Positions 8,942 through 22,696 are shown, numbered from the stretch's first letter. The stretch is DNA of 64,000 nt from an uncultured archaeon (GCA_964421955.1 CAYQYU010000005.1:1-64000); one strand, 5' to 3'. Notes: generated by a model not told the origin, from the letters alone. Made by a program: numbers and translations.

Positions 8942-10117
8942 ATGTCCAGTTACAGGGAAGTGGCAAAAGAACTCAAGTCGCGGGGATCGAACCGGGAAGA
9001 TCCGTCACTCGATCCTGTTAACGGTGCGCTGGAAGAACTCGGGAAACCGGAAAGCGACTACAGTATTATTCTCGTGGGAGGCACCAACGGCAAGGGATCG
9101 ACCGCCGAGATGATCTCCCGGTGCCTCCAGGAGCTCGGTCACGACGTGGGCGTCTACAAGTCCCCTCACATGATATCACTCAGGGAGCGGATCCGTGTGA
9201 ACCATAGAGAGATCGAGGAGAAAGAGTTCGAGAGGCTTTACGAGGAAATTAACTCCCTGGATGCAGATCTCACATTCTTCGAGTTCATGACAGTGATGGC
9301 GTACCGGCACTTCTCCACCCACAGCGTCGACTACGCGGTTATGGAGGTGGGCATGGGCGGAAGGCTGGACGCGACGAACGTTGCGGAATCTGATATCTCA
9401 GTTATAACCAATATTGAGGAAGACCATACCCAGTACCTGGGAGAGACCCGGGAAGAGATAGCCCGGGAAAAAGCAGAGATAGCGCCCTGGAAAAGCAAAC
9501 TCGTTACCGGCGACAGAATGGAGCCGATACTCGAGGTCGCGGCCGAAAGATCAACCGAGGTTCTCGATCCACTGCCTGTCGAGAAGATCGGGAGCAAGTA
9601 CCTGGTAGAGGGCCAGGAGTTCGAGCTACCGGTGCGTGGAAGCTTCCAGGAAGAGAACCTGGAGACCGCGCTCCGGGTGGTCAAAGAACTTGAGGAATTA
9701 CCGGATCTGCAGCAGGCGTTTTCCGGCCTCGATTTCCCGGGAAGGATGGAGCTCGTGTCCCGGCAGCCCAGGCTGATCCTCGATGGAGCGCACAATCCTG
9801 CCGCGCTGAGAAAGGTGCTTGAAGATTTCCCGGAGGAGTTCACATGTGTCTTCAGCGCGCTGAAGTCCAAGGCCATAGGAGAGATGGTGGAGGTGCTCGA
9901 GGAACGGGCTACGAAGTTCTACTTTACACGGCCGGAGTTCGAGAGGGCGGAAGATCCGGAAGAGATCGCCGGAGAGGCTTCCATCGAGTATGAGGTGGAG
10001 GAAGACCCTGGCAAAGCCCTGGAAAGAGCACTTGACGAGGCTGGAGAAAGAGGTGCGGTAGTGGTCACCGGGTCGCTCTACCTTATAGGAGACATCAAGA
10101 AGCTCCAGCACCAGTAA
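8942..10117 (+). CDS. folC: Folylpolyglutamate/dihydrofolate synthase
   Basis: GGTNGKGST, SPH, EVGMGGRLDATN, PGRME, LDGAHNP, TGSLYL. Confidence 0.95.
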   Translation: MSSYREVAKELKSRGSNREDPSLDPVNGALEELGKPESDYSIILVGGTNGKGSTAEMISRCLQELGHDVGVYKSPHMISLRERIRVNHREIEEKEFERLYEEINSLDADLTFFEFMTVMAYRHFSTHSVDYAVMEVGMGGRLDATNVAESDISVITNIEEDHTQYLGETREEIAREKAEIAPWKSKLVTGDRMEPILEVAAERSTEVLDPLPVEKIGSKYLVEGQEFELPVRGSFQEENLETALRVVKELEELPDLQQAFSGLDFPGRMELVSRQPRLILDGAHNPAALRKVLEDFPEEFTCVFSALKSKAIGEMVEVLEERATKFYFTRPEFERAEDPEEIAGEASIEYEVEEDPGKALERALDEAGERGAVVVTGSLYLIGDIKKLQHQ

Positions 10118-10166
10118 CCGGCATTTTCAGGCAAATTTAAATGAGTGTGTTGACATTTCCTAGATT

Positions 10167-10352
10167 ATGGTCAGTCAGGGAACCTGGAACACTCTTTTCA
10201 GCTGGATAACCGGGAAACAGTGCTTAATCCCTGAAGGATGTCCTCCGCCTGTCGAGGGCGTGTTCGTCTATGGCCTGCTTCTCGTGGCCATAGCAGGATC
10301 GGCCTATTATGTCCACAGGAACGGGGTTCCGGAATGGAGAGAGTTATTGTAG
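10167..10352 (+). CDS. Small membrane protein
   Basis: 61-aa ORF with one hydrophobic segment; overlaps the folA start. Confidence 0.55.
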   Translation: MVSQGTWNTLFSWITGKQCLIPEGCPPPVEGVFVYGLLLVAIAGSAYYVHRNGVPEWRELL

Positions 10353-10813
10353 CCGCGGTATCCGAAAACGGCGTTATTGGGAAGGACGGGGATATCCCGT
10401 GGCACTTCCCCGAGGACCTGAAACATTTCCGGGAGACCACTATGGGATATCCTGTGGTGATGGGCAGCAGCACCTACAGGTCTCTACCTAGAGATTATCG
10501 CCCCCTTCCTGGAAGAAAGAATATTGTGCTCACCCGGTCAGGAATCGAAGCACCTGAGAGTGTGGAAGTAGCGAACAGTCTTGACGAGGCCTGGAGTATC
10601 GCAGAAGAGACTGGAAAAGGAAAAGTATTCATCATAGGCGGCGCATCGATCTATGAACAGGTTTTGCCCGATGCAGACAGGATGATCCTGACCGAGATAC
10701 ACCAGGAATACGATGGCGACACCCGCTTTCCTGACTGGGACCGCGAGAGCTGGAAGGAAGTCGAACGCGATGACCGGGAAGAACTCTCTTTCGTAGAATA
10801 TGTCCGGGAATAA
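10334..10813 (+). CDS. folA: Dihydrofolate reductase
   Basis: IVAAVSENGVIGKDGDIPW, PEDLKHF, RPLPGRKNIVLT, FIIGGA, GDTRFP. Start at MERVIV. Confidence 0.95.
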   Translation: MERVIVAAVSENGVIGKDGDIPWHFPEDLKHFRETTMGYPVVMGSSTYRSLPRDYRPLPGRKNIVLTRSGIEAPESVEVANSLDEAWSIAEETGKGKVFIIGGASIYEQVLPDADRMILTEIHQEYDGDTRFPDWDRESWKEVERDDREELSFVEYVRE

Positions 10814-10822
10814 TTTTCAGAA

Positions 10823-12511
10823 TCAGTTCGAGAAGCCCTCGAAGGAGTATTCTTCCTCTTCCTCATCTTCCCCACTGACCATGTCGAGAATCTCGTTTAC
10901 CTTTCTCATTATAGGCTCTGTCCGGCTTCCCTCTTCGGAAGCGGAGTTGAGATACTCCTCTATCTCATCCCCTTTCTCAAGGTACAGCAGCACTCCTCCT
11001 ATAATTGCCAGTATGACGAAGACCATGGCAGCCAGCACAAACAGCAGGCTTCCGCCCTGATCCGGGTTCTCGTTTTCTATTGACGTGGCGGAGATGTCTG
11101 ACGAGCCTGTAGTTGTATCCACTGTCTTTGAACGATCCCCTACCTCTATGTCCCAGGTTCCCTCACTCTCAATCTTCTTCACGAAGCTCGCCTCCCTGGT
11201 CTCTCCAGGGCCGACAGCCTCAAGCTCTTCCTCGAATTCTTCCCCGGCGAGCTCAAATGATACGGTATAGTTTCCTTCCGCATTCCCGTTATTTTTCACG
11301 CTAACAGTTATTTCCAGCGTATCTCCTGCACTGGGATCGCTAACGTTGAGGTCAATGCCCTGGACCTCGAAATCGGGACTCAGCTCGTCTCCAGTTATGG
11401 CAAAGACGGAGAAGCCTGGTGATTCGGCGCGGTAGTAGCGGTAGTCATCGTCATCGTCGGTCTCTTCGGTCGGTAATTCCTCCCATCCCTCGTCGTACCG
11501 CATCAGTCTTACCGAGTCGGGGTCTATAGAATTATTATCGATCCAGTCCTTCTCCACCCGGAAGCTGAAGTTCGCGCTTTCTATATCCCCGTCGGATATA
11601 TTGGTCTTCTCGAGTTCTATATACCTGTAAACGGTCCCTGAAGGATCTTCGTCAGCATCGTCTGGTCTGTCCCCAGAGGTGCTGGACTGTATCGCCACCC
11701 GGTCCTCAACATCGTCGGCTATCTTGATCTTGATGCTGGTCACCGGTGACTCGTCGAACTCGGCATCCTTGATGTCGCCTTCGTCAACCGAGAAAAGGTA
11801 CTCGGTCTCGTCAAACCCGGACTCAAGCGTGGCCGCGCCGCCACCACCGCCCGATGAACTCTCCTGTGTGGAAGAAGTTTCAGTGTTGTTATCAACATCC
11901 ACGGTATCCTCGTAGGAACTGAAGTAGCCTGCGCTATCGGTCACGTTGACAACCACATCGATCTCGTCCTCATCTTCAGGTTCCTCAAAAGTGTGAGACA
12001 ACGAGTTCGAGTTACCTCCTTCCGGATCCCCGCCGACCGTCCAGCTGTAGCTTAGAGGACCGTCAAACTCGTTAGTGGCGGATACGGTAAACTCTCGTTC
12101 TACCTCGTTGTCATCATCGTCATCGTCACCATCATCTCCAAAATCGATGTTGGTATCCCATGAAGCAGATACTTCCGGCCTGTCTCTCAGCACCTGTTTA
12201 ACTTCGGTTGAGTCGGTCTGGCTTCCGTTGCTGACTGTGAGCTTGATCGTATTTGTCTGGGAGGAATCGCGGTCGAATGTAAAGGTCGACTCTAGACCAG
12301 TGGCCTGCTCCGAGGCCTCGACCCAGTCCCAGTTATATGTCAGGGAACCTGATCCACTGGAAAGCTGTGCATCAAACGTCTTTGAAACCTCGTAACTGTT
12401 GCTGGAGTCGAGGACAATATCATCCGGATTGCCAGGATCGATAACTGCGTTGACAGCAGAAACTGTTCCCGTGAGCAGGATTATTGCCGCCAGGGCTGCG
12501 AAACGTCTCAC
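10823..12511 (-). CDS. Cell-surface protein with PKD-like, PGF-pre-PGF and CARDB domains and a C-terminal TM anchor
   Basis: Signal peptide; LTYNWDW/LSYSWTV PKD-like strands; FRVEKDWI...AESPGFSVFAITG; VSVKNNGNAEG; C-terminal hydrophobic helix. Confidence 0.85.
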   Translation of the reverse strand: MRRFAALAAIILLTGTVSAVNAVIDPGNPDDIVLDSSNSYEVSKTFDAQLSSGSGSLTYNWDWVEASEQATGLESTFTFDRDSSQTNTIKLTVSNGSQTDSTEVKQVLRDRPEVSASWDTNIDFGDDGDDDDDDNEVEREFTVSATNEFDGPLSYSWTVGGDPEGGNSNSLSHTFEEPEDEDEIDVVVNVTDSAGYFSSYEDTVDVDNNTETSSTQESSSGGGGGAATLESGFDETEYLFSVDEGDIKDAEFDESPVTSIKIKIADDVEDRVAIQSSTSGDRPDDADEDPSGTVYRYIELEKTNISDGDIESANFSFRVEKDWIDNNSIDPDSVRLMRYDEGWEELPTEETDDDDDYRYYRAESPGFSVFAITGDELSPDFEVQGIDLNVSDPSAGDTLEITVSVKNNGNAEGNYTVSFELAGEEFEEELEAVGPGETREASFVKKIESEGTWDIEVGDRSKTVDTTTGSSDISATSIENENPDQGGSLLFVLAAMVFVILAIIGGVLLYLEKGDEIEEYLNSASEEGSRTEPIMRKVNEILDMVSGEDEEEEEYSFEGFSN

Positions 12512-15500
12512 TCACGGCACCTCGTACATTACCGTGAACTTGCCTCCAAATAGGATTTTGCCAGTAGACCCTTCCGACATCCATGTCTCGTTCCTGTAAA
12601 CTGTGTCTCCGTCAGTCTTCAGCCCCAGTAAGTATCCTCCACCGTAGTCTGTCGAGTTGCCTGCCACGAGACCGCTTATGCTTGTCTCCCCGTTGGTGCC
12701 CGTGACACCAGTTCCGGAGTGGGAGACATTTGTCCTGTTCGACCTGACGATTACCAGAGCCTCCGAAACCAGTTCGTCATTGCTGTCGGTAACGTTGAAG
12801 TTGACCTCGACTTCCCTGGGATTGGTAAGCGTCACCGAGACATTCTGGTACTCCAGCGTTTGGGAGTTGTTCTTGTTCCCAAATACCTCGGTTCTTTTAT
12901 CTATCTCCACTTTCTTCGAAATTGAGGTGTAGTCGTCGCGGATAACTGTTATAGTCACATTATCTCCCTCTTCCTGACGGTGGAACAGTGCGTTTCCAGA
13001 GCTGTCTGTTTCGTTCTGGCCCCCATTGACTATGACTGTTGCGTTCGCCAGAGTTTCCGAAGTGGAATCGTCTTTAACTGTTACGCGGAGACTTCGGCCA
13101 TTGTTGAGTTCAAGTGTCAGGTTCTTGATAACTCCAAGTTCACCGCTACCGACAACGGTCCTGTTTGGCTGGTAGCTCTCGTTGTCGCTGTCAACCCATA
13201 TGTTGTAACCTACGTCTTTCAGGCCCGAGAAGCTGTACTCGCCGCTCGAGTAGGATGTGGACCGGAAGATCTCCTCCGTCGAGTTCCAGATGCTGATGTT
13301 TCCTGATCCAAGTATTGCGCCCGTGGAGTTGTCCGTGATATTCCCTTTCAGCGTCTTGCCGTCGCTGAGGCTAAAGTTTTTGTGGCCGGAAAGCCCTGCT
13401 ACATTAACTCTGGTTTTGTTAGCCTCGTAATCCGTGTTTTCTGGAGGAATTATCTGGAAAGTGTGGTTGTGAGACTTCAGGGTCAGGTTGTAGAACCCGT
13501 TCGAGTCGGTGGTATCCGAGTCGAAGCTGTCCCGGCTGTCGTTCCTCGCGAACACTCTAATCCCGCTTGCTCCGACTGCTGCGCTACTCGAGCCGTTGAA
13601 TACGTAGCCCTCAACACTCTTCCAGCTATCAAGCTGGAAGTCTATCGAAGTATTTTCAAACAGAACCAGCTGTTCCTCCAGAGTCCTGTAATTGCTGCTG
13701 TCAGGGAGGATCTTGATCCGGTAGAAAGTTTTCTTCGGCAGCCCTGTTACGTTGAAGAAGTCGCTGGAGTTGAAGGTATCGTACTTCCAGACGTTCGCTC
13801 CCGGCCCTGTCACGGTTACATTTCCGCTTATCAGACTGCCGTCCGCACCTGTTACATTCCCGCTCAAAGTGGCGTTCTCCACACTCGAGCTGAAGTTCAG
13901 CATCTCGGTATCCGAACTGATATTGACAGCGGTCCTGTTACTATCTATACCGGGTTTGTGGATGTAGACATCAACCCTGTAAGAAACCTGTTCCAGCCCA
14001 TTGATCTCATAGTACCCTGAACTATCCGTCTCAGCAAAGCCGTAGGAATGTTTTGTGCCGTTCCAGACGAACACTTCCGCTTCAAGTCCCTGGCTTCCCT
14101 CTTTTACCCAGCCCTTCAGCGTTGCGCCGGTTGAAACTGTTAAGTTCCTGTCAAGCCTTAAACCGGTATTGGCGTTTATAGTGGCACTGTCCTCTGTAAT
14201 CTTGTAGTTGGAGTTGAAAGGCGGGATGATTTTGATGTTGTAGTCGGTGTTGTTCGTCACCTTCGTGGAGAACGTGCCGTTACTGTCCGTGACCGTTTGC
14301 GTGAATTTTCTCTCCGACCGGTTCTCCAATATTACGCGGGCATCAGATATTACACCCCCGGTACTGTTCACAACTGTTCCGTTGAAATCAACCTTTACCG
14401 GGAACTCGAACTCTCCAGATACATTCGTGATATTATTTTTCTGGACCTTTGCTATCTTCGGCCCGGCAATACTTACTATAGGAGATCCGGAACCGGTCTC
14501 GAACTTGGCGACCATGACCTCGTAGCTGCCGTTAGGAATATTCGATAGGGTGAAGCCCGGGGGTTTTATCCCGTTCTTGATGTAGGTCCTGCCCCGGGTA
14601 TCATTGAAGACGCCGGCGGCGTACTTCACGTTCGATTTCCTGGAACCTTCAAGAGTGCCCGAAACATCGCCTGTGTGAGAGGTAATATTGAAGTCGAACC
14701 CGGGGAAGGATGAGGGCGACTGTTCATCAATCTCAACGGTCGGATTGAATGCATCATAGGTATCGTTCCTTGAGTTGTTCATGACCTCTATCTTGTAGTT
14801 GCCCGGGGAAAGTCCTGTGAAGTTGAATGCTCCATTACTATCGGTGAATTTGACAAGCCTCGGTGGAGCTACGGTGAGAGGTGTCCTCGAAAGATACTCA
14901 CCGTTGTAACCGGTCAATTGGATCTTAACATCTGGTCCGTAACTGCGGTTCGAGTTGTTGAATACCTGTCCCGATACGAAGTAGCTGTTGTCGAGCGCAA
15001 AGTCGTTTATACGGGGCTTTGGAGCAGCTGGCAAAGCGCCCGGGAACGGCTTGGAAGCATTCCTTGAGGCCTTGGCCGAGAGACCGTATCCTGAGGCGTT
15101 GACCATTATCCAGTACTTGTGGAGCCCGGTCGCGTTCAGCCTGTAAAGCCGCTCATTATTATTCGACCCAGGGTTCATGTTGGTCAGGTTGTCGATGCCG
15201 GTCTCGTACGCACTCCTTGGAATCTCGGTGGCGTTCTCCCAGTAGAACATACTGATATTAGGTGTTCCGGAAATCTCCGGCTGGGGAGGACCTCCCTGGG
15301 GAGCCCGTATCCTGCCTGTGACATCAGAATTATTCCTCACCACATCGATATTGACCCTGGAGCTTGCCGATGCCGAACTTGTGTCATTAACTGTGTAGCG
15401 GCCCTCACCAATCTGGGTTATGTTCAGCGTGCCGTTATTGTCAAATGAGTCAAATAGACTGAATGTCGGCGCCCCAGCCCTGTTCTGCAGTTCAAAGTTG

Positions 15501-15706
15501 CCTGAACCGCCTATTATCTCCAGAGTGTTGCCAATAAATGTGACGTTGGGCCCAGAAAAAATGAAATCAAAGGTTGTATCCGTAGCCGGATCGCTGTCGG
15601 CAACTCCGAAAGATGGCTGGGCCGATACCATGCCTACCAGAAACAGGAGTGAGATGGAAAGAGCTATCGTGGCTTCTCTACGGCTCCCAAAAACATCGCT
15701 CGGCAT
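12512..15706 (-). CDS. Large secreted glycoprotein with tandem carboxypeptidase-regulatory-like beta-sandwich repeats
   Basis: 1064 aa, signal peptide, repeated TDSNG.F/Y and G.V motifs, dense N-x-S/T sequons. Confidence 0.85.
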   Translation of the reverse strand: MPSDVFGSRREATIALSISLLFLVGMVSAQPSFGVADSDPATDTTFDFIFSGPNVTFIGNTLEIIGGSGNFELQNRAGAPTFSLFDSFDNNGTLNITQIGEGRYTVNDTSSASASSRVNIDVVRNNSDVTGRIRAPQGGPPQPEISGTPNISMFYWENATEIPRSAYETGIDNLTNMNPGSNNNERLYRLNATGLHKYWIMVNASGYGLSAKASRNASKPFPGALPAAPKPRINDFALDNSYFVSGQVFNNSNRSYGPDVKIQLTGYNGEYLSRTPLTVAPPRLVKFTDSNGAFNFTGLSPGNYKIEVMNNSRNDTYDAFNPTVEIDEQSPSSFPGFDFNITSHTGDVSGTLEGSRKSNVKYAAGVFNDTRGRTYIKNGIKPPGFTLSNIPNGSYEVMVAKFETGSGSPIVSIAGPKIAKVQKNNITNVSGEFEFPVKVDFNGTVVNSTGGVISDARVILENRSERKFTQTVTDSNGTFSTKVTNNTDYNIKIIPPFNSNYKITEDSATINANTGLRLDRNLTVSTGATLKGWVKEGSQGLEAEVFVWNGTKHSYGFAETDSSGYYEINGLEQVSYRVDVYIHKPGIDSNRTAVNISSDTEMLNFSSSVENATLSGNVTGADGSLISGNVTVTGPGANVWKYDTFNSSDFFNVTGLPKKTFYRIKILPDSSNYRTLEEQLVLFENTSIDFQLDSWKSVEGYVFNGSSSAAVGASGIRVFARNDSRDSFDSDTTDSNGFYNLTLKSHNHTFQIIPPENTDYEANKTRVNVAGLSGHKNFSLSDGKTLKGNITDNSTGAILGSGNISIWNSTEEIFRSTSYSSGEYSFSGLKDVGYNIWVDSDNESYQPNRTVVGSGELGVIKNLTLELNNGRSLRVTVKDDSTSETLANATVIVNGGQNETDSSGNALFHRQEEGDNVTITVIRDDYTSISKKVEIDKRTEVFGNKNNSQTLEYQNVSVTLTNPREVEVNFNVTDSNDELVSEALVIVRSNRTNVSHSGTGVTGTNGETSISGLVAGNSTDYGGGYLLGLKTDGDTVYRNETWMSEGSTGKILFGGKFTVMYEVP

Positions 15707-15781: not shown

Positions 15782-16561
15782 CTACAGAAACCTGAGCAGG
15801 ACTATCGCTATGAGGATGGCTGCCATAACTATCGCGCCGAATGTGCCGGGGCCTATGTCGAGGAAGCTGGCGATGTCTGAAAGCCCGGGGACGATGCCGG
15901 CAAGCATCGCAGCCGAGACAAAAAGTATTGTCAGCGATATGATGATCATGAAGGTGGTGAACGCCTCCTGCTCGTCGCCCTCTTCCTTCATACCTTTCAT
16001 CTCCTGGCCGATCTTCCATATCTCATCGAGGATTATCAGTGCCGCGGGAATCAGGACAAGCAGCAGGAATGCGTTGAGACCGCCCGCCCACACTATCACA
16101 TATCCGAGATAGGGAACCGAGAACATTACCTCGCCCACCAGTTCATCGGCTTCGACAAATCCGGGATCGGGGTCCTCGTTGTTGTCTCCCTTCGTCTCGA
16201 ACCTCAGATTTTCCCCGCTACCTTCGACTCCTATAACGCGGTGGGTGGTGACCTCGTCTTCATCGCTCTGGAAGGTGATGACATCATTCTCCCGGATGTT
16301 CTCTGGCTTGACGCCGTATACGAAAACTACCGCGCCTGTTTCAATAGCCGGCTCCATCGACCCTGACTCGACAACGTAGGCCTCTTTTGCACCCACGAGT
16401 TGGGGGACCGAGTAGAGAACAAAAGGTAGCAGGAGTATAGCAATAACAATCCAGGAAAAGCTGCTCAAATTCAGTCCCGGGAGATTTATCTCAGGTGCGG
16501 AAAGTTCAAGACCCGAATTCTCCTCCTCTTCATCATCCTCGTAGGAGTAATCGTATCCCAT
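15782..16561 (-). CDS. sipW: Signal peptidase I, SipW/ER-type (S26B)
   Basis: ESGSMEP (Ser), TTHRV (His), TKGDNNEDPD, VPYLGY; several TM helices. Confidence 0.92.
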   Translation of the reverse strand: MGYDYSYEDDEEEENSGLELSAPEINLPGLNLSSFSWIVIAILLLPFVLYSVPQLVGAKEAYVVESGSMEPAIETGAVVFVYGVKPENIRENDVITFQSDEDEVTTHRVIGVEGSGENLRFETKGDNNEDPDPGFVEADELVGEVMFSVPYLGYVIVWAGGLNAFLLLVLIPAALIILDEIWKIGQEMKGMKEEGDEQEAFTTFMIIISLTILFVSAAMLAGIVPGLSDIASFLDIGPGTFGAIVMAAILIAIVLLRFL

Positions 16562-16573
16562 AGCTTTTCCTCC

Positions 16574-17710
16574 TCACCTCGGAAGGTTAAATCTCTCGAT
16601 GATATCGCGGCGTCTCCAGTAAAGCACGGCAAGCAGGATCAGGAGCAGAAGTGCGAGCAAACCTGACTGCGACTGGAAGAAACTTGGCGTAGGAGTTTCC
16701 GGTGTCTCAGGACTCTGTGGACTCTCCTGGTCTGGCTGTTCCTGCTCGGACTCTTCCCCTGTCATGAGTTCCAGGCTGAAGGACAGGCTCGATGTTTCAT
16801 CCGCCGTAATTTCCTGGTCAGCGGTCTCGAAAATGTAGCCAGATACGGAGGCGTTCACAAGGTAGTCGCCCTCGGCCAGACTGAACCGGGCGATTCCGGA
16901 TGCGTTCGTGTCGCCGGAGGTTTCAAAGCTGTCACCGGAGACCTCGACTGTAGCGCCCTCTATAGCGGTGCCGGATTCGTTAGTGACCGTCACTTCAAGG
17001 ATTCCGATATCCACGTTATCTGAATCACTGCTGTCCTTCGAAGTTCCGGAACTCTCGATCCTGAAGTTATTCGTGCCGTCGCTGGTACTGGTTTCATCAT
17101 CTCCGTTATTGCCGTTGTCGTCACTGCCGTTATCGCCCCCTCCATTCGAGTCATCGCCAGAGGGTTCTCCTGTCGCCGCGACAAGGTCGAAGCCGAATGA
17201 GTCTGTCTGTGCCGCATTTGTCGCCCCCTTAGGAAGCAGCCATTTCACAACTATTCTCTTTTCATCCGACGGACTGAGGTCTCCGAGGAAGCTCCACGGG
17301 TTGCTCATCTGGGTCCAGTTGTTAACTATCAGGAGCTTCTCGCCCGGATCGTGTTGAAGGTTGCCGCCGGTCGATTCTATCCACGCGGTGAAGTTCATCT
17401 CCTCGTCGAGCTCGCCGTCAGGGTCACAGCTACCTCCCTCGGCATCTGCCTCGGGTTCAATGCAGGAGTTGTCGCTGTCGTCTGTCTCGTTGAGCTTTAT
17501 GTAGAGGCTGTAGGTATCGTTAAGACTGATATCAACCACCCAGAGACCGGAGTCGCCGGGCAGGACGTTGTCAAGCTGGAAGCTTGGTGCGTCTCTGGTC
17601 TGGCCAGCGTAGTAGGTGTCGAAGCTTGCATTAAACGTGTTCTCTTGCGCAGTTACTGGAGCCAGGAAAAGCACCAGTAGCAGAGCGGATAGAACGAGTT
17701 TTCTCATCAC
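16574..17710 (-). CDS. Membrane-anchored TasA-like protein with linker and beta-sandwich domain
   Basis: LDNVLPGDSG, CIEPEADA, AAQTDSFGFDL shared with the neighbouring TasA-like proteins; G/D/N/S linker; C-terminal TM plus YWRRR. Confidence 0.75.
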   Translation of the reverse strand: MMRKLVLSALLLVLFLAPVTAQENTFNASFDTYYAGQTRDAPSFQLDNVLPGDSGLWVVDISLNDTYSLYIKLNETDDSDNSCIEPEADAEGGSCDPDGELDEEMNFTAWIESTGGNLQHDPGEKLLIVNNWTQMSNPWSFLGDLSPSDEKRIVVKWLLPKGATNAAQTDSFGFDLVAATGEPSGDDSNGGGDNGSDDNGNNGDDETSTSDGTNNFRIESSGTSKDSSDSDNVDIGILEVTVTNESGTAIEGATVEVSGDSFETSGDTNASGIARFSLAEGDYLVNASVSGYIFETADQEITADETSSLSFSLELMTGEESEQEQPDQESPQSPETPETPTPSFFQSQSGLLALLLLILLAVLYWRRRDIIERFNLPR

Positions 17711-19650
17711 TGTCCGCCTCCTGGAAGATCCACTTCAAGCCCATGGTTTTTGCCGGGATCAAGTCTGTGGGTCATATTATCGTGTAGCTGCTGCTCGCCC
17801 GCTCTTGAACCGTCCCATCCCGCGAACGGTTTGGAATAGACCGCCAGCGTAACGTTCACACCGTCGCTGCAGACTCCTTCGTCCTTCACATCAAATCGGG
17901 CTCTCACCGTGTCTCCGCCCTGAATCAGCTTAAATGCCTTGTCGCTTTCGATACATTCGACCTGTTCAGGGTTGCCTCCTGGATTGGTCAGTCCGTCATC
18001 GATGTTTCCATGCCTGTGCCGGATCATGCTTCCCCTGTCATGGTAGAGCTGGTCTGACAGGTTCTCAATTGGATGGCCCTCAACGAGATCAATCTGGTAG
18101 TACTCGTCTTCTCCCTCACCGTTATCCTGGTCTACATCGATAGGCTCACAGAAGTCGAAGACCACGTGGCTCAGTGCGAACGATCCTTCTCCTCCTGTTT
18201 TATCGTCGCTCGTAACTTCAATTACGTATGTTTCAGTTCCATCACCGTTCTGGATTATATCGACCAACTCCACTGTGAAGGCTCCCGAGGGCACGGTCTT
18301 CTGATCTCCCTCGCCCTCGAGCTTCACTGATTCCTCGAGCTGGCCTGCCTTGGTCTTCACCCAGACAGAATCATTACCGTTCTCCAGCGTGATAGTGAAC
18401 ACGTCAGACTCATTTTCTCCTTCTTCTCCCAGTTCGTGCCCCAGAGACTCAAACTTGACCCTGCTAGAACTCTTTATCTGGGCCCCATATTCTCCTTCTC
18501 CAGTATCGCCGTTGCTAAAGGTTCTATCCGACCCATAGTAGCCATCACTGGGATCGACTATGCCGCCGCAGTCCTGGCATTCCGCGAAAGTCTCTGTGCT
18601 GAAAGTGTTCTCCGCGCTGATCTCTGTGTCGTGGAAACCCGTCACTTCCTGGTCAGGGTTGTTCCTTTCCTGGACAATATCGAATGAGAAGTCGAAAACC
18701 TTTTCCTGTTCCTGGACCTCGCAAACGTCTTTTCCATTCATCCGCCACCGGAAGCCGATGTGCTGTATATCTGTTCCAAAGGCCGATATTCCTGAAGCGG
18801 TCGGGCTGAGCGTAATCCCTTTTTCGAGTTTTTCCCCGATCTCGTGTGCGGTTCCGTTCGCGATCACGCGCTCGTTCTCGTATCTGTTGTCGCCGTCATC
18901 GTACCACACCAGGAACTCCAGTTGATCGCCGAGACCTCTATCCGGCTCCGGCAGGTCGATAGTTAAGGAATAGTTGCCAGAGGTGTAGTTGGTAGTATTG
19001 TAATCTACAAGGACCTGTTCGTCGGCCTCATCCGGCTTCCATCCTCCGCCGGACGCCTTCTCGTAGCTCGCGAGCGTCAGCGTCCTGTTGCAGTCGATCT
19101 CGAAGTCGACCGTCACCTGGTATTCCTCGTGGTCGAACTCCATTTTATCCGTCTCGACACAGCCTTTTTCGCCGCCGGAAACGCTGTATCCTGACTCCGA
19201 GACGTTGCCGTGTTTCCAGGCGATTTTTCTATCGCCGTAGAGGTTGTCCTCGCTGAGGTTGTGGATGACCTCGCCCTCAACAAAGTCGACCTGGTAGTAA
19301 GAAGGTTCTGGATCCGGGCCCGCGGTCTGGTTGACGGAGAAATTCATCCAGTACGGGTTTGTCTCACCCTCGAACGAGATAGTGGCCTCGCCTGTATCGC
19401 CGGGCTCGATCCCGGTCAGGTTGAAGATGGCCCCAGGATTATTTGTCAGCGGCTGGTCCTCAATACTATTGTTGTTGTAGGATTCTTCCCACCCTACCTG
19501 GAGGTCGATAGATCCTGTTTCAAAACGGTTGTCCTGACTGGTCTCGATGTCGAAGAAAGAGTAGGCGGCCGCAGAACCTGTTAACATGAGTAAAGCTACA
19601 GCTACCACTGCAACTGCTGCTCTACCGATCGAGTGATTCTTTGCTTTCAT
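17707..19650 (-). CDS. Multidomain SipW-class (TasA-like) secreted protein
   Basis: Signal peptide then AYSFFDIETSQDNRFETGSIDL; IEPGDTG, VWYDDGDN, QERNNP; two copies of an unnamed ~120-aa domain. Confidence 0.8.
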   Translation of the reverse strand: MKAKNHSIGRAAVAVVAVALLMLTGSAAAYSFFDIETSQDNRFETGSIDLQVGWEESYNNNSIEDQPLTNNPGAIFNLTGIEPGDTGEATISFEGETNPYWMNFSVNQTAGPDPEPSYYQVDFVEGEVIHNLSEDNLYGDRKIAWKHGNVSESGYSVSGGEKGCVETDKMEFDHEEYQVTVDFEIDCNRTLTLASYEKASGGGWKPDEADEQVLVDYNTTNYTSGNYSLTIDLPEPDRGLGDQLEFLVWYDDGDNRYENERVIANGTAHEIGEKLEKGITLSPTASGISAFGTDIQHIGFRWRMNGKDVCEVQEQEKVFDFSFDIVQERNNPDQEVTGFHDTEISAENTFSTETFAECQDCGGIVDPSDGYYGSDRTFSNGDTGEGEYGAQIKSSSRVKFESLGHELGEEGENESDVFTITLENGNDSVWVKTKAGQLEESVKLEGEGDQKTVPSGAFTVELVDIIQNGDGTETYVIEVTSDDKTGGEGSFALSHVVFDFCEPIDVDQDNGEGEDEYYQIDLVEGHPIENLSDQLYHDRGSMIRHRHGNIDDGLTNPGGNPEQVECIESDKAFKLIQGGDTVRARFDVKDEGVCSDGVNVTLAVYSKPFAGWDGSRAGEQQLHDNMTHRLDPGKNHGLEVDLPGGGQ

Positions 19651-19670
19651 GGTTCTGCGTTCCGCTCGCG

Positions 19671-20429
19671 CTAGCTATTCCAGGGGTTCTGCGGGTTCTG
19701 GTTGTTACGTTCCTGTTCCGCGAACAGCTCGATGTCGAGCTTCATGGTGTCGGTCTGCTGGACGTTTCCTGAGTCCCAGAACGCCCAGTGGATCGAAATG
19801 AACCTGGTCTCCGAGTTCTGGAACGGGTCCTTGGTTATCGACGAGTCCTGCCATCCGATGCTGTCAGGCTCGTTACTGTGGTCTCCATCTAGCAGGACGG
19901 TCTCGTTGTCGATCCTCTTCGCCTTCAGACCCATGATCTTCCGCTCTCCCTGCTGGTTCTGCTGTAGCTTGCAGTTGGTATCCGCGTTGTCGTGGAACAC
20001 CTTGAACTGGACACGGTTCTGGAGCTCTCCATTACCCGGCCCCTGGGAGTTGTCTCCCGCCTCTTTCTCTGGCTCGGTCAACGTGGGATCGTCTGTGTCC
20101 CTGACATCCATCTTCATCCAGAGCCAAGACGGGTTATTGAAGACATGGGTGCTGACTGTCAGACAGCCTGAATCACCAGGCTTGACATCGTCGAGCTCAA
20201 TGACTGGTCCAGCATTGTCGACCAGCTGGGGCTCTTCCCCTTCTCCGGAGGTCTCTACTACTCCTCCATTGTAGGTCTCTGCCCAGTCAATCTTCAGGTC
20301 GACAGCGCCAGCCTCAAAGCTGTTACCGGTTGCGGCCTCTGTATCGTTGAAGTAGGCCAGTGTACCAGACCCAGCTACAGCTCCAGCGATGCCAATCACC
20401 ATGAGTGACGCGAATATCTTCTTGTTCAT
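19671..20429 (-). CDS. TasA/camelysin-like protein with SipW-cognate signal peptide
   Basis: MNKKIFASLMVIGIAGAVAGSGTLA-YFNDTE...NSFEAGAVDL, VKPGDSG; SD AGGTGA upstream. Confidence 0.85.
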   Translation of the reverse strand: MNKKIFASLMVIGIAGAVAGSGTLAYFNDTEAATGNSFEAGAVDLKIDWAETYNGGVVETSGEGEEPQLVDNAGPVIELDDVKPGDSGCLTVSTHVFNNPSWLWMKMDVRDTDDPTLTEPEKEAGDNSQGPGNGELQNRVQFKVFHDNADTNCKLQQNQQGERKIMGLKAKRIDNETVLLDGDHSNEPDSIGWQDSSITKDPFQNSETRFISIHWAFWDSGNVQQTDTMKLDIELFAEQERNNQNPQNPWNS

Positions 20430-20462
20430 CTTGGTTTTCACCTATGATACGTTGAAGCCCTC

Positions 20463-20511
20463 CCCTTCCGGTTAAAGAAGGGAAGAGCAGGTGTAGAGAC
20501 TGAGTCTCTAC
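20463..20511 (-). promoter_or_regulatory. Two-hairpin intergenic RNA element, copy 2
   Basis: Plus strand CCCTTC-cggttaaa-GAAGGG (20463-20482) and GTAGAGAC-tga-GTCTCTAC (20493-20511). Confidence 0.6.
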
Positions 20512-21800
20512 GACTGTGTCCATGGATTCTGTGGGTTAGGGTTGTTCCTTGCCTGCTGTGTGTAGAACTCCATGTCGTACACCAGACTGTCTGTCTGCGC
20601 CTCGTTTCCTGCGTCTTTAGTGAAGTTCCACTTGAACCCGATGTGGCTCTCTCCAGGCTGGTACGGATCGATCTCCTCTGTGGAAGGATCGCCGTCGAGC
20701 CTCACTCCGTCTGAGAGATCGACTTCTTCAGTGTCACAGATCTGAGATCTGAGATCTGAGAAAATCTGCTCAACGTTGGACTGATTCGCTAGATAGGCGT
20801 CTGAGGGGCTCGAAGCAACGTTCTCTAGAGTCGTTGTGTTGAACTCCGCACCCTCGTAGGCAACGGTGATAATCCTCACACCATCGCCAATAGCCTGCTG
20901 TGCCTCCGTCTCCGGATCAGGTCCTGACTTGGAATTGCCGTCACTTAGAACGACCATTACCTTTTCAGCCCCCGAATTGGAGTCGGGACCAGTCAGCTCA
21001 CTGTGAGCAGTGTCGATTCCTGAACCAAGATTCGTTCCCCCTTCCGGAACTACAGCTGCTATCGAGTCGTTGAGCGCCTGCTTGTCGCCAGTCAGTGGTT
21101 CATCAAGAGTTGCACTGTCGGCGAAAGTCACCAGCGCTCCCTGATCATTCGACCCGAGAGAGTTGACAAGAGCATAAGCTCCGTCCTGCGCGGCATCAAA
21201 CTTCCCAGGATCCTGAGGGGGTGGATTCTCTCCCTGTGTGCCTGCGCCGTCCATAGAACCTGATCTATCCAAGACCAGGGCAAGATCGACAGGAACCTCA
21301 CTGCATGTCTGCGTAGTGGTCGTGATCTTCTCTTCGCCGTCTTCAAAGACGTTGTCTCCATCGTCATACCAGACAACATGGCTGAAGTGGTCGTCAATCT
21401 CTCCATCTCCGTCCTGACCACAGTTGGGTTCCGCCTCAAGCTCAGGGTCATTACATCCGTTGTCACTATCCGCATCCTGCTGGAGCCTGAACCATACCCA
21501 GCCAGGATTCGTCTGGAGATCAAGGTTGATGGTCGCCTCCCCGTAGTCTCCCGGCTTCAGATCACTGAAGTTGAAGACAGGCCCAGGATTATCCGTGACT
21601 TCCTGAATCTCGAAAGGCGTCTCCTCAGTTGCAGGAGCGTTGTAGTGCTCCGTCCAGCCGATCTTGAGGTCGAGAGCGCCGGCTGCAAACGTGTTTCCAG
21701 TCACTGACTCCGTATCGTTGAAGTACGCCAGCGTACCAGACCCAGCAACAGCTCCGACGATCCCGATAACCATCAGGGAAACCAAAATTCTTCTGTTCAT
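20508..21800 (-). CDS. TasA-like protein with an inserted von Willebrand A domain
   Basis: SipW-type signal GSGTLA-YFNDTE; vWA DLALVLDRSGSM (MIDAS), GGTN, VLSDG; TasA C-terminus AQTDSL...QARNNP; SD GGAGGTGA. Confidence 0.9.
   Translation of the reverse strand: MNRRILVSLMVIGIVGAVAGSGTLAYFNDTESVTGNTFAAGALDLKIGWTEHYNAPATEETPFEIQEVTDNPGPVFNFSDLKPGDYGEATINLDLQTNPGWVWFRLQQDADSDNGCNDPELEAEPNCGQDGDGEIDDHFSHVVWYDDGDNVFEDGEEKITTTTQTCSEVPVDLALVLDRSGSMDGAGTQGENPPPQDPGKFDAAQDGAYALVNSLGSNDQGALVTFADSATLDEPLTGDKQALNDSIAAVVPEGGTNLGSGIDTAHSELTGPDSNSGAEKVMVVLSDGNSKSGPDPETEAQQAIGDGVRIITVAYEGAEFNTTTLENVASSPSDAYLANQSNVEQIFSDLRSQICDTEEVDLSDGVRLDGDPSTEEIDPYQPGESHIGFKWNFTKDAGNEAQTDSLVYDMEFYTQQARNNPNPQNPWTQS
21751..21797. 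repeat. 47-bp exact repeat, copy 1 (signal-peptide coding region)
   Basis: GCTCCGACGATCCCGATAACCATCAGGGAAACCAAAATTCTTCTGTT is identical to 22644-22690. Confidence 0.9.
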
Positions 21801-21860
21801 TCTAATTCTCACCTCCTTTTGATTCTGTTCTTGCTTTGTGGTTTTGCATACGATCACGCC

Positions 21861-21923
21861 TTTCTTCCTCGGTTAAAAGGAAGAAAAGAGGGGAAATGTG
21901 GGAGACAGAGCTAGGCTCTGTCT
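21861..21923 (-). promoter_or_regulatory. Two-hairpin intergenic RNA element, copy 1
   Basis: Plus strand TTTCTTCCT-cggttaaa-AGGAAGAAA (21861-21886) and AGACAGAGC-tag-GCTCTGTCT (21903-21923). Confidence 0.65.
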
Positions 21924-22696
21924 TAGTCCTGAGCTGGCGGATTCAGTGTGGTGTCTGCACCGATGTCTTCAGGTGCTAGATTTTCACACTCAAAGCCTTC
22001 CTGGTTTCTGGACTGAGTTGCGTAGAGGTGTAGATCCGCTACGTACTCGTCAGTCTGAACCAGGTTGTCTGCGCTGCTTGGCAGAGTGACGTTGACTGCG
22101 ATGAACTTCCTCTGGTTAGGTGAGAGTGCCTCACCATCGGTACCAAAGGCGTTGTAACTGGAGTCAACTAGCTCTAAGACCTGGCTGGAACCATCAGCAG
22201 GCACTGGAGTCTCATCGAAGCCTCCGATGATTCTGTCACCGTCTTCCTCGTTGTAGATGTTGTCTCCATCATCTACCCATGCTGTCATCTGGAGTTCTCC
22301 TGCGAGCTCTCCTTCGTTAGGAACAAATCCGTCTCCTACACTGTTCCCTTCATCAGAGTGATCTGCTTCTGGCTCTGTGACTGAGACTTCGTTGTCCTCT
22401 ACATCTGTGATTGCTGCACAGACGTAGGATGGGTTGTCGCTGACTTCGAAGGCGAAGGTTGTCTCGTTGGTATCACCAGGCTTCATGTCGCTGATGCTGA
22501 AAGCCGGTTCGCCATTGAAGTCAATCAGTGCGCTGTCACCGTTGGCATAGCCGAACTCTAGGTCAATGCTTCCCGATGTGAATGTGTTCCCTGTACTGGA
22601 TTCGGTGTCGTTGAAGTAGGCGAGTGTTCCTGATCCTGCTACTGCTCCGACGATCCCGATAACCATCAGGGAAACCAAAATTCTTCTGTTGATCAT
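21923..22696 (-). CDS. TasA/camelysin-like protein, probable major fibre subunit
   Basis: GSGTLA-YFNDTESSTGNTFTSGSIDL, MKPGDT, WVDDGDN, VQTD; first gene of the cluster, with SD GGAGGTGA. Confidence 0.85.
   Translation of the reverse strand: MINRRILVSLMVIGIVGAVAGSGTLAYFNDTESSTGNTFTSGSIDLEFGYANGDSALIDFNGEPAFSISDMKPGDTNETTFAFEVSDNPSYVCAAITDVEDNEVSVTEPEADHSDEGNSVGDGFVPNEGELAGELQMTAWVDDGDNIYNEEDGDRIIGGFDETPVPADGSSQVLELVDSSYNAFGTDGEALSPNQRKFIAVNVTLPSSADNLVQTDEYVADLHLYATQSRNQEGFECENLAPEDIGADTTLNPPAQD
22644..22690. repeat. 47-bp exact repeat, copy 2
   Basis: Identical to 21751-21797. Confidence 0.9.

Follow-up and report, generated by a model that had tools for sequence, protein, structure and literature searches.

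A candidate TasA-type fibre operon with its own signal peptidase in a probable nanohaloarchaeon

The DNA considered here is a window of 64,000 nucleotides (GCA_964421955.1 CAYQYU010000005.1:1-64000) that represents contig C5 in the genome of an uncultured archaeon, an assembly of 922,649 bp in 27 contigs with 98.8% completeness. An earlier note, made from the sequence of the window, took the organism to be a probable nanohaloarchaeon, and this is supported by its placement in the same GTDB family as 'Nanohaloarchaea archaeon SG9' and two Candidatus Nanohaloarchaea records. Positions 15782-22696 hold six co-oriented open reading frames (ORFs) on the minus strand, exactly within the limits and in the orientation first noted, of which g1 to g5 encode proteins with a TasA-type core and g6 encodes a signal peptidase. 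The cluster is very probably a TasA-superfamily strand-exchange system equipped with its own peptidase, a terminator or anchor and adhesin-bearing subunits. Its features are as follows.

21923-22696, minus strand: g1, 257 aa, TasA-family subunit with a SipW-type signal, candidate shaft subunit
20508-21800, minus strand: g2, 430 aa, TasA-family subunit with a nested vWA domain, candidate adhesin-bearing subunit
20766-21287, minus strand: vWA domain inserted in g2 (Pfam VWA, DRSGS motif)
19671-20441, minus strand: g3, 256 aa (252 aa from 20429), TasA-family protein, candidate shaft subunit
17707-19650, minus strand: g4, fusion protein of 647 aa with a variant signal, a TasA core and extra modules
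18598-18645, minus strand: internal donor-strand-like motif of g4 (residues 336-351), VTG/FHDTEISAENTF
16574-17710, minus strand: g5, 378 aa, TasA core without a donor strand and with a C-terminal membrane helix, candidate terminator/anchor
16628-16684, minus strand: C-terminal hydrophobic helix of g5 from a hydropathy scan, preceded by 'PSFFQS' and followed by RRR
15782-16561, minus strand: g6, signal peptidase I of 259 aa, archaeal/SipW (endoplasmic reticulum) type

The intergenic distances from g1 to g6 are about 122 (for g2 from 21800; 125 from 21797), 66, 20, -4 and 12 nt. The mechanically called ORF of g2 begins at 21857 and comprises 449 aa, and the database call P0003 gives 430 aa. All six proteins are strongly acidic, with isoelectric points (pI) of 4.05-4.41 and an Asp+Glu content of 16-20%, as is expected for a halophile.

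The SipW-type signal that the earlier note had read in three genes is recognised in g1, g2 and g3 by TIGR04088 (SipW-dependent-type signal) with 40.8, 38.5 and 36.5 bits respectively, against a cut-off of 19; g4 and g5 have no match to this model at E<=0.01. A variant of the signal had been attributed to the fourth gene, and g4 indeed falls below TIGR04088 yet is recovered with an E of 4.3e-5 by a motif profile built from 22 columns of the signal and strand motif. Run on all six-frame ORFs of the genome, this profile finds only g4 and g1-g3 (E about 1e-12; 4.3e-13 for g1). The signal and donor-strand motif of g1 occupies residues 26-46 (AYFNDTESSTGNTFTSGSIDL), and the variant in g4 reads '...AAAYSFFDIETSQDNRFETGSIDL'. 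A cut after ...GSGTLA would leave an N-terminus of the form Y-F-N-D-T-E..G-N-x-F, with the phenylalanine at mature position 2 and the aspartate at position 4; the F, D and E of this mature N-terminal strand are invariant in 48 family members. In TasA of Bacillus subtilis the donor strand comprises residues 28-38, the first 11 mature residues after the SipW cut, which reach into the next subunit and make hydrophobic contacts through F29, I32 and F39 (PMC9674648, Böhning et al.). In the donor strand of AbpX, mature positions 2 and 4 are reported to hold a conserved aromatic and an acidic residue, respectively (bioRxiv 10.64898/2026.01.04.697558). Compared at the level of sequence, the motif in g1-g4 agrees in position with the strands given for TasA and AbpX. 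By analogy, what looks like a 'signal' motif in g1-g4 is probably for the most part the donor strand, with the predicted cleavage site after GTLA.

Membership of the TasA/Peptidase_M73 families, which the earlier note had suggested checking with profile searches, is borne out for all five proteins. Three of them exceed the PF12389 (Peptidase_M73) cut-off of 22.5 bits (g1 31.9, g2 25.4, g3 24.1) and are the three matches of a search of the whole genome, all within the cluster; the Pfam scan gives no PF12389 match for g4 and g5. Haloferax volcanii, one of the control genomes, has no PF12389 protein either. An ortholog in the relative G019 covers profile positions 2-192 of 196. A family profile built from 48 homologs (alignment A2) matches all five proteins far beyond chance, with E of 4.4e-83 for g3, 1.9e-74 for g2, 6.7e-72 for g1, 2e-36 for g4 and 2.3e-21 for g5. 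The AlphaFold2 model of g3 has a mean predicted local distance difference test score (pLDDT) of 75.6 and a predicted template modelling score of 0.71, and its best Foldseek match, the sole one at E<=0.001, is the B. subtilis TasA fibre, 8aur_A (E 3.3e-5). VIA-align superimposes the two over 160 residues with a Z of 9.5 and a root mean square deviation (rmsd) of 4.5, and 8aur_A is the only chain to reach Z>=8 both among 997 re-aligned chains and, independently of Foldseek, among 48,161 representatives. Lower matches include the TasA monomer (Z 7.6), CanA (6.9), AbpA (6.7) and the Sulfolobus thread (6.6), and below 8aur_A strand-exchange filaments and chaperone-usher pilins are interspersed with unrelated jelly-rolls. 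The model of mature g4 (618 aa, alignment A5) has a mean pLDDT of 58.4; its split TasA core is confident, with blocks at 85-95, and its best Foldseek match is again 8aur_A (E 3.9e-3), while both donor-type strands, domain X and the modules lie below about 50-76. The predicted models support a TasA jelly-roll fold for g3 and for the core of g4.

g2 is a TasA-family protein with a von Willebrand factor A (vWA) domain nested within its core. In the 449-aa ORF the match to the family profile is divided between residues 20-196 and 364-448, and residues 191-364 match VWA (PF00092) with 80.8 bits against a cut-off of 23.8. The DxSxS motif of the metal ion-dependent adhesion site (MIDAS) is preserved as DRSGS at residue 177 of the translation from 21797, and the sequence supports an intact vWA adhesin domain in g2. 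vWA-inserted TasA subunits are also found elsewhere, in a metagenome-assembled genome (MAG) of the Aenigmatarchaeota and on a 42-kb contig.

g4 is the most elaborate of the subunits and comprises, in order, the variant signal with its donor strand, a split TasA core, a second strand-like motif, a domain termed X and a second module. The family profile matches residues 12-111 and 240-337, the core being interrupted by a 'YYQVD' module of about 120 residues (~117-236); domain X covers residues ~355-515 and a second, 'YYQID' module (~516-647) ends the protein. Residues 333-515 have counterparts (43% and 36% identity) in the N-terminal regions of two secreted proteins with genes of their own, found with phmmer in the fetched loci. 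These 'donor strand + domain X' proteins are encoded in an Aenigmatarchaeota MAG (L029, 9301-10689) and on contig G044:C58 of a genome of the same order as that of the window (L032, 7358-9397), and both begin with their own signal and strand motif. In g4 that strand motif persists internally as VTG/FHDTEISAENTF at residues 336-351. Across the six-frame ORFs of the genome 0.17 occurrences of the pattern F.D.E....N.F would be expected and five are observed, four at the N-termini of g1-g4 and one inside g4, where the motif is weak as a profile match (2.2 bits, second domain). The arrangement of its sequence identifies g4 as a gene fusion. Its internal strand could occupy the groove of g4 itself, in cis, could be a second place of cleavage or could be a relic, and the g4 model, with its low pLDDT there, favours none of these. 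Domain X and the g4 modules match no Pfam family, a protein database search with the C-terminal module gave no usable match, and a homolog search with residues 300-647 returned only g4 itself. Two TasA-like Hadarchaeota proteins of 376-377 aa (L033:10332-11465 and L045:3780-4910) have, like g4, a second strand motif within the protein, 'AYFDIE.SIGN.F' at about residue 242.

g5 is the fifth member, for which core motifs and a transmembrane helix had been noted, and both are present: it has LPGDSG, EPE and QTD and a hydrophobic helix at residues 343-361. It lacks the GTLAYFNDTE stretch and has an ordinary signal peptide (...APVTA/QENTF). Only family-profile positions 80-229 are matched, so that g5 begins after the donor strand. 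The core is followed by an acidic linker, a CarboxypepD_reg domain (42.4 bits, cut-off 32.3), the helix and RRR. Its ortholog P0084 is 49% identical and has the same architecture, without the strand and with the helix and basic tail. When the g5 core was searched exhaustively against 1.84 billion representatives, 120 proteins matched at E<=0.001; eight of them, picked mostly for a short N-terminal offset, were inspected. Five of the eight (P0086, P0088, P0090, P0096 and P0100) combine a short N-terminus with a helix and a basic tail, the listed P0100 sequence showing no obvious signal peptide, and P0089 has a g5-like tail yet keeps the strand. In Hadarchaeota clusters a helix-ended TasA-like gene lies directly before the peptidases and keeps the strand motif. 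A subunit with a groove and no strand can only end a chain, and a terminator role has been proposed for the pilin-like TafF of the Tafi fimbriae (PMC11821415).

The tail of g5 may be a membrane anchor or an undescribed sorting signal. None of the NCBIfam CTERM models matches it above cut-off, the best being MYXO-CTERM with 19.5 bits (cut-off 20). The genome has one exosortase/archaeosortase-family gene of 170 aa, which scores 43.7 bits with TIGR04178 (cut-off 23) and 43.8 bits with PF09721 (25.7) and fits no named subtype. The g5 class ends in '[AT]TG.F[FTI].S' followed by a helix and a basic tail (16574-16753 in g5), and two more ORFs of the genome end in the same manner (listed together with the archaeosortase gene as G000:C1:51701-52618, G000:C15:9662-10864 and G000:C1:17226-17738). 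Beside the archaeosortase-family gene, L061:1958-2386 (G000:C1) encodes a protein of 142 aa with an archaellin/type IV pilin N-terminus (TIGR02537, 24.8 bits, cut-off 20), so that surface proteins resembling type IV pilins are also encoded in the genome.

g6 is an archaeal signal peptidase I that scores 115.1 bits with TIGR02228 (116.9 in the genome search; cut-off 51.85). Ser68 and His107 are invariant in all ten aligned sequences and Asp132 is conserved in at least 90%; the N-terminus is acidic and a C-terminal extension adds two more hydrophobic helices. Besides g6 the genome encodes two paralogs, three copies of signal peptidase I in all; identity to g6 is only 30-31% for these paralogs and 36-49% for the peptidases that neighbour TasA genes in relatives. 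In five of seven TasA-bearing related genomes a peptidase gene lies at most 0.5 kb downstream on the same strand; the remaining two loci, one of them a complete 17.5-kb contig, yielded no peptidase. Genomes with three peptidase matches make up 5/8 of the TasA-positive ones (4/8 if G020, in which two matches lie in one frame, is counted as having two genes) and 0/33 of the TasA-negative ones, which have no match in 4, one in 26 and two in 3 genomes. These genomes are kin, and the co-occurrence of peptidase and TasA genes is thus a pattern rather than a statistical test. By this comparison of sequences g6 is an extra peptidase copy that travels with the TasA genes and an ortholog of the TasA-linked peptidases of relatives.

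Taken together, g1-g6 are probably a single operon whose products would make a fibre, or a short stalk, of the TasA superfamily, anchored to the cell and assembled by donor-strand exchange. It is proposed that the subunits would be exported by Sec and cut by g6 after ...GTLA, which would free the donor strand YFNDTE..GN.F, and that outside the cell the freed strand of each subunit would be laid into the open β-sheet of the next. With about 230 aa in their mature form, g1 and g3 would serve as plain shaft subunits, and g2 as a shaft-type subunit that carries its metal-dependent vWA adhesin domain nested in the core. The subunit with the most extra modules, g4, is the best candidate for the distal adhesive end, and g5, as a strand acceptor only, would end the chain and hold the fibre on the cell. 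We infer cleavage by g6, polymerisation, the order of the subunits, the target of the fibre and host capture, the last of which is plausible.

Several observations weigh against this interpretation. The evidence consists of genes and predicted models, and the proposed roles of the parts are assigned from their architecture; since g1-g4 each have both a strand and a groove, any of them could sit anywhere in the chain. For the most part the Pfam matches of g2 and g3 span the signal and the strand (residues 36-67 and 5-53), and searches of the PDB by sequence did not retrieve TasA, the family profile (E<=1) finding only adenovirus fibre knobs at E>=0.015 and g1 (E<=10) one fucolectin at E 0.17, and it is therefore Pfam, TIGR04088 and the fold that link these proteins to Bacillus TasA. 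As to the fold, a Z of 9.5 is moderately above the 7-8 that VIA-align commonly gives for unrelated jelly-rolls. The N-terminal strand has a pLDDT below 50 in the models of both g3 and g4, which consequently say nothing about strand exchange. G050, a genome of the same family, encodes a protein that resembles the fusion, with core, domain X and module, and lacks the motif at the junction; that of g4 is thus possibly a relic. The earlier note had placed sipW last, and a peptidase I is indeed the last gene; as it scores 118.5 bits with the SipW equivalog NF046067 (cut-off 190), g6 is better named an archaeal-type signal peptidase I working like SipW than SipW itself. The patchy distribution of TasA-like genes in the phylum (12/70 genomes) argues against an essential role in symbiosis and for an accessory trait. 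A three-copy prediction of mature g3 (A2, residues 26-252), run without controls, scored 0.00 and speaks neither for nor against.

The same genes could instead make released matrix fibres, which would bundle freely and glue cells together in aggregates or a biofilm, g5 being a minor nucleation or attachment point. Bundling and the support of biofilms are common to TasA, archaeal bundling pili (ABP) and Tafi fibres (PMC9674648; PMC9245690; PMC12337348), 'non-finalised' Tafi chains without an anchor have been proposed to be released (PMC11821415), and 7/24 genomes of the family have a single TasA gene with no g5-type gene in the loci inspected. The window cluster, however, includes a paralog with a membrane end and no strand, of which another organism has a conserved counterpart (P0084), as well as two subunits with adhesin-type domains, and an anchor together with adhesins fits a cell-bound adhesive structure better; free fibres are therefore unlikely. 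Alternatively the five proteins might share fold and signal and act as separate, monomeric surface adhesins, with g6 as the processing enzyme for their signal class. TasA itself is stable as a self-complemented monomer (PMC9674648), and the single proteins of relatives are long, multi-domain molecules of 470-660 aa that could act alone. Yet conservation in the family is highest in the mature N-terminal strand, with F, D and E invariant in 48 sequences, which is hard to explain if the strand is unused, g5 keeps the core and has lost exactly that strand, and comparable sets of paralogs form heteropolymers in Tafi (PMC11821415). We regard independent monomers as improbable.

If the name Peptidase_M73 were taken at face value, the proteins would be secreted, camelysin-like metalloproteases, and g1-g3 do lie above the cut-off of PF12389, the family that carries this name. 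The best structural match is nevertheless the non-enzymatic TasA fibre, and the Pfam matches cover chiefly the signal and strand region. Because none of g1-g6 contains an HExxH motif, the protease reading is rejected and can be given hardly any credence. At the other extreme, the anchored fibre proposed above could be elaborated into a polar, self-limiting TasA organelle for seizing a host, in which the g4 tip would be filled in cis by the strand of the fused initiator, the vWA domains of g2 would be displayed along the shaft, and the g5 end would be fixed through a '[AT]TG.F' + helix + basic signal read by the archaeosortase-family enzyme; such a degree of specialisation is unlikely.

The tapA-sipW-tasA operon of B. 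subtilis shares with the window cluster the PF12389 and TIGR04088 families (above cut-off in g1-g3), the fold, TasA being the best structural match, a donor strand at the peptidase cut and a SipW/archaeal-type peptidase within the operon (PMC9674648). It differs in that it has one TasA-core gene where the window has five, with the peptidase last. Furthermore, there is no separate TapA homolog here, the nearest analogue being the 'donor strand + domain X' part of g4, and the strand-less membrane-ended g5 and the vWA insertion of g2 are peculiar to the window in this comparison.

The haloarchaeal Tafi (tat-fimbriae, tafA-G) of Haloarcula hispanica and Natrinema comprise a major pilin, a minor or adapter pilin, a multi-domain tip that donates the first strand, the terminator TafF, which spans the membrane at its C-terminal end, and TafD as the dedicated signal peptidase, and are likewise assembled by strand donation (PMC11821415). 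Knockouts of tafA and tafD have been made, and the loss of TafD abolishes the fimbriae (PMC11821415; PMC12337348). Unlike g1-g5, which have no DUF1102 match at E<=0.01 and signals without a twin-arginine motif, the Tafi pilins TafA/TafE are of the DUF1102 type (PMC11821415) and carry twin-arginine translocation (Tat) signals; in addition, no DUF5305 (TafG) or regulator gene is seen in the window cluster.

The AbpX/AbpA pili of the Thermoproteota belong to the TasA superfamily and use donor-strand complementation; abpX is followed directly downstream by a signal peptidase I gene, most abpX loci also having minor subunits and tip proteins (bioRxiv 10.64898/2026.01.04.697558). The AbpX-linked peptidase has ten membrane helices (bioRxiv 10.64898/2026.01.04.697558), compared to about four hydrophobic segments in g6. 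The match of AbpA (7ueg) to the g3 model is weak, a Z of 6.7 with an rmsd of 10.1 over 152 residues being in a range common for jelly-rolls, and the ABP operon as described has no dedicated peptidase (PMC9245690). The earlier note had called the Pyrobaculum bundling pili SipW-associated, and this does not agree with the published description of that operon, which places no dedicated peptidase gene near it (PMC9245690). The 50 best-ranking structural matches listed include no chain of Tafi or AbpX; a relationship to either is possible. The idea of a filament with a division of labour holds as far as the types of part are visible in the architecture of the proteins, but it is not new: the Tafi locus has such parts (PMC11821415), and the AbpX preprint describes tip, minor-subunit, anchor and peptidase genes in both AbpX and Tafi loci (bioRxiv 10.64898/2026.01.04.697558).

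A TasA-like match (E<=1e-10) is present in 12/70 genomes from the phylum, three of them with several such matches (the genome of the window, G050 and G044). Within a set of 40 relatives a TasA-like gene is present in 7/24 genomes of the same family and 0/16 of other families of the order. With multi-gene loci in 3/70 genomes, the cluster is not a general nanohaloarchaeal trait. Single TasA proteins of related nanohaloarchaea (L019, L020, L021 and L024) share a conserved C-terminal domain of about 200 residues, '...TVEISP..GN.TVEELYDYRLP...WVVKDDLY...TIDWTWG.GGTDGGAF...', which has no Pfam match and is absent from the window cluster.

A wider, pattern-seeded scan of one genome per prokaryote species, which is not an unbiased sample, gave 35 loci. 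The archaeal ones are from Nanohaloarchaea (3), Hadarchaeota (6, from two MAGs), Aenigmatarchaeota (1), Woesearchaeota (1), another archaeon (1), Thermoplasmata (3) and haloarchaea (10); nine are patescibacterial and one is labelled Gammaproteobacteria. At least three profile-matching ORFs are found in 25/35 loci (by mechanical ORF calls, a few of them overlapping), and a signal peptidase, usually as the last gene, in 27/35, some of the eight loci without one being cut off where the contig or the fetched flank ends. Database names for the proteins are 'TasA family protein' and 'SipW-dependent-type signal peptide-containing protein'. Multi-TasA clusters of haloarchaea, Hadarchaeota, Thermoplasmata and Patescibacteria resemble that of the window in having TasA-like genes in a row with the peptidase last or nearly last, and differ from it in the Tat-type signals of the haloarchaeal and the fusion of the peptidase to a substrate-like domain in the patescibacterial ones.

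In the haloarchaeal homologs (L050, L051, L052, L054 and L057) a twin-arginine, Tat-type leader precedes the SipW-type motif, as for example in '...SRRRLLAG...GAGTFAYLSD', and the peptidases of these clusters have C-terminal extensions of about 370-390 aa. The signal peptidase I of Patescibacteria and of a single Woesearchaeota locus bears a C-terminal fusion, which consists of a motif of the substrate type ('GGT[IL][AS]YF.D.E.S.GN.F.AGEW', roughly residues 250-266) and another domain. These fusions (L036, L037, L047, L048 at 9954-11483, L049, L053, L055, L056 and L058) are the last gene of each locus, and from their sequences the fused peptidases appear to carry their own cleavable, strand-bearing passenger.

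A tree of 116 TasA-like cores, built with a quick method, leaves 40/112 inner branches open and is poorly resolved around the window genes, for which reason neither a donor nor an order of duplication was drawn from it. The haloarchaeal proteins form a separate clade with a Shimodaira-Hasegawa-like approximate likelihood ratio test (SH-aLRT) support of 97, and g2-g5 group with nanohaloarchaeal proteins (SH-aLRT 83), the placement of g1 not being resolved. A recent transfer of the cluster from a haloarchaeal host is not supported, the haloarchaeal proteins being a clade of their own with Tat signals.

Downstream of g6 lie further genes on the same strand.

10823-15706, minus strand: two surface-protein genes recognised through Pfam, whose membership in the system is uncertain

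They are co-oriented with the cluster and follow g6 with gaps of 75 and 0 nt. The first (12512-15706, minus strand) encodes a protein of 1064 aa with CarboxypepD_reg repeats and 60 N-x-S/T sequons that is much less acidic than its neighbours (D+E 10.9%, pI 4.96), and the second (10823-12511, minus strand) a protein of 562 aa with CARDB, a membrane helix and an acidic tail. Neither has homologs beside TasA genes in the related loci searched, except for a weak CARDB repeat match to one ORF (L035 7048-8370, E 3e-07).

The statement that no characterised example exists in this lineage holds as far as a full-text literature search extends, which found no report of SipW or camelysin for the Nanohaloarchaeota and none of TasA for the DPANN archaea; a full-text search for Nanohaloarchae* together with TasA gave nothing relevant as judged by title. 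PF12389 has been reported as widespread in archaea, the main text of that report naming no DPANN lineage (PMC9245690, Wang et al.), and of the archaeal TasA homologs 'none ... has been experimentally characterized' according to the AbpX preprint (bioRxiv 10.64898/2026.01.04.697558). The design itself has already been described in archaea and bacteria, as in the Tafi and AbpX loci, and what is new is the lineage, for which such a system has not been reported. Little is known of the means by which DPANN archaea, whose genomes measure about 1 Mb, stay attached to their hosts, and a five-subunit TasA-type system of about 7 kb with its own peptidase is a testable candidate for an adhesion organelle in a nanohaloarchaeon. 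The operon is compact and its types of part, plain, vWA-inserted, fused and module-rich, and a strand-less terminator, are unusually clear, which makes it a good one to express and image. Within the biology of these organisms the TasA system would be an accessory trait and not the basis of symbiosis.

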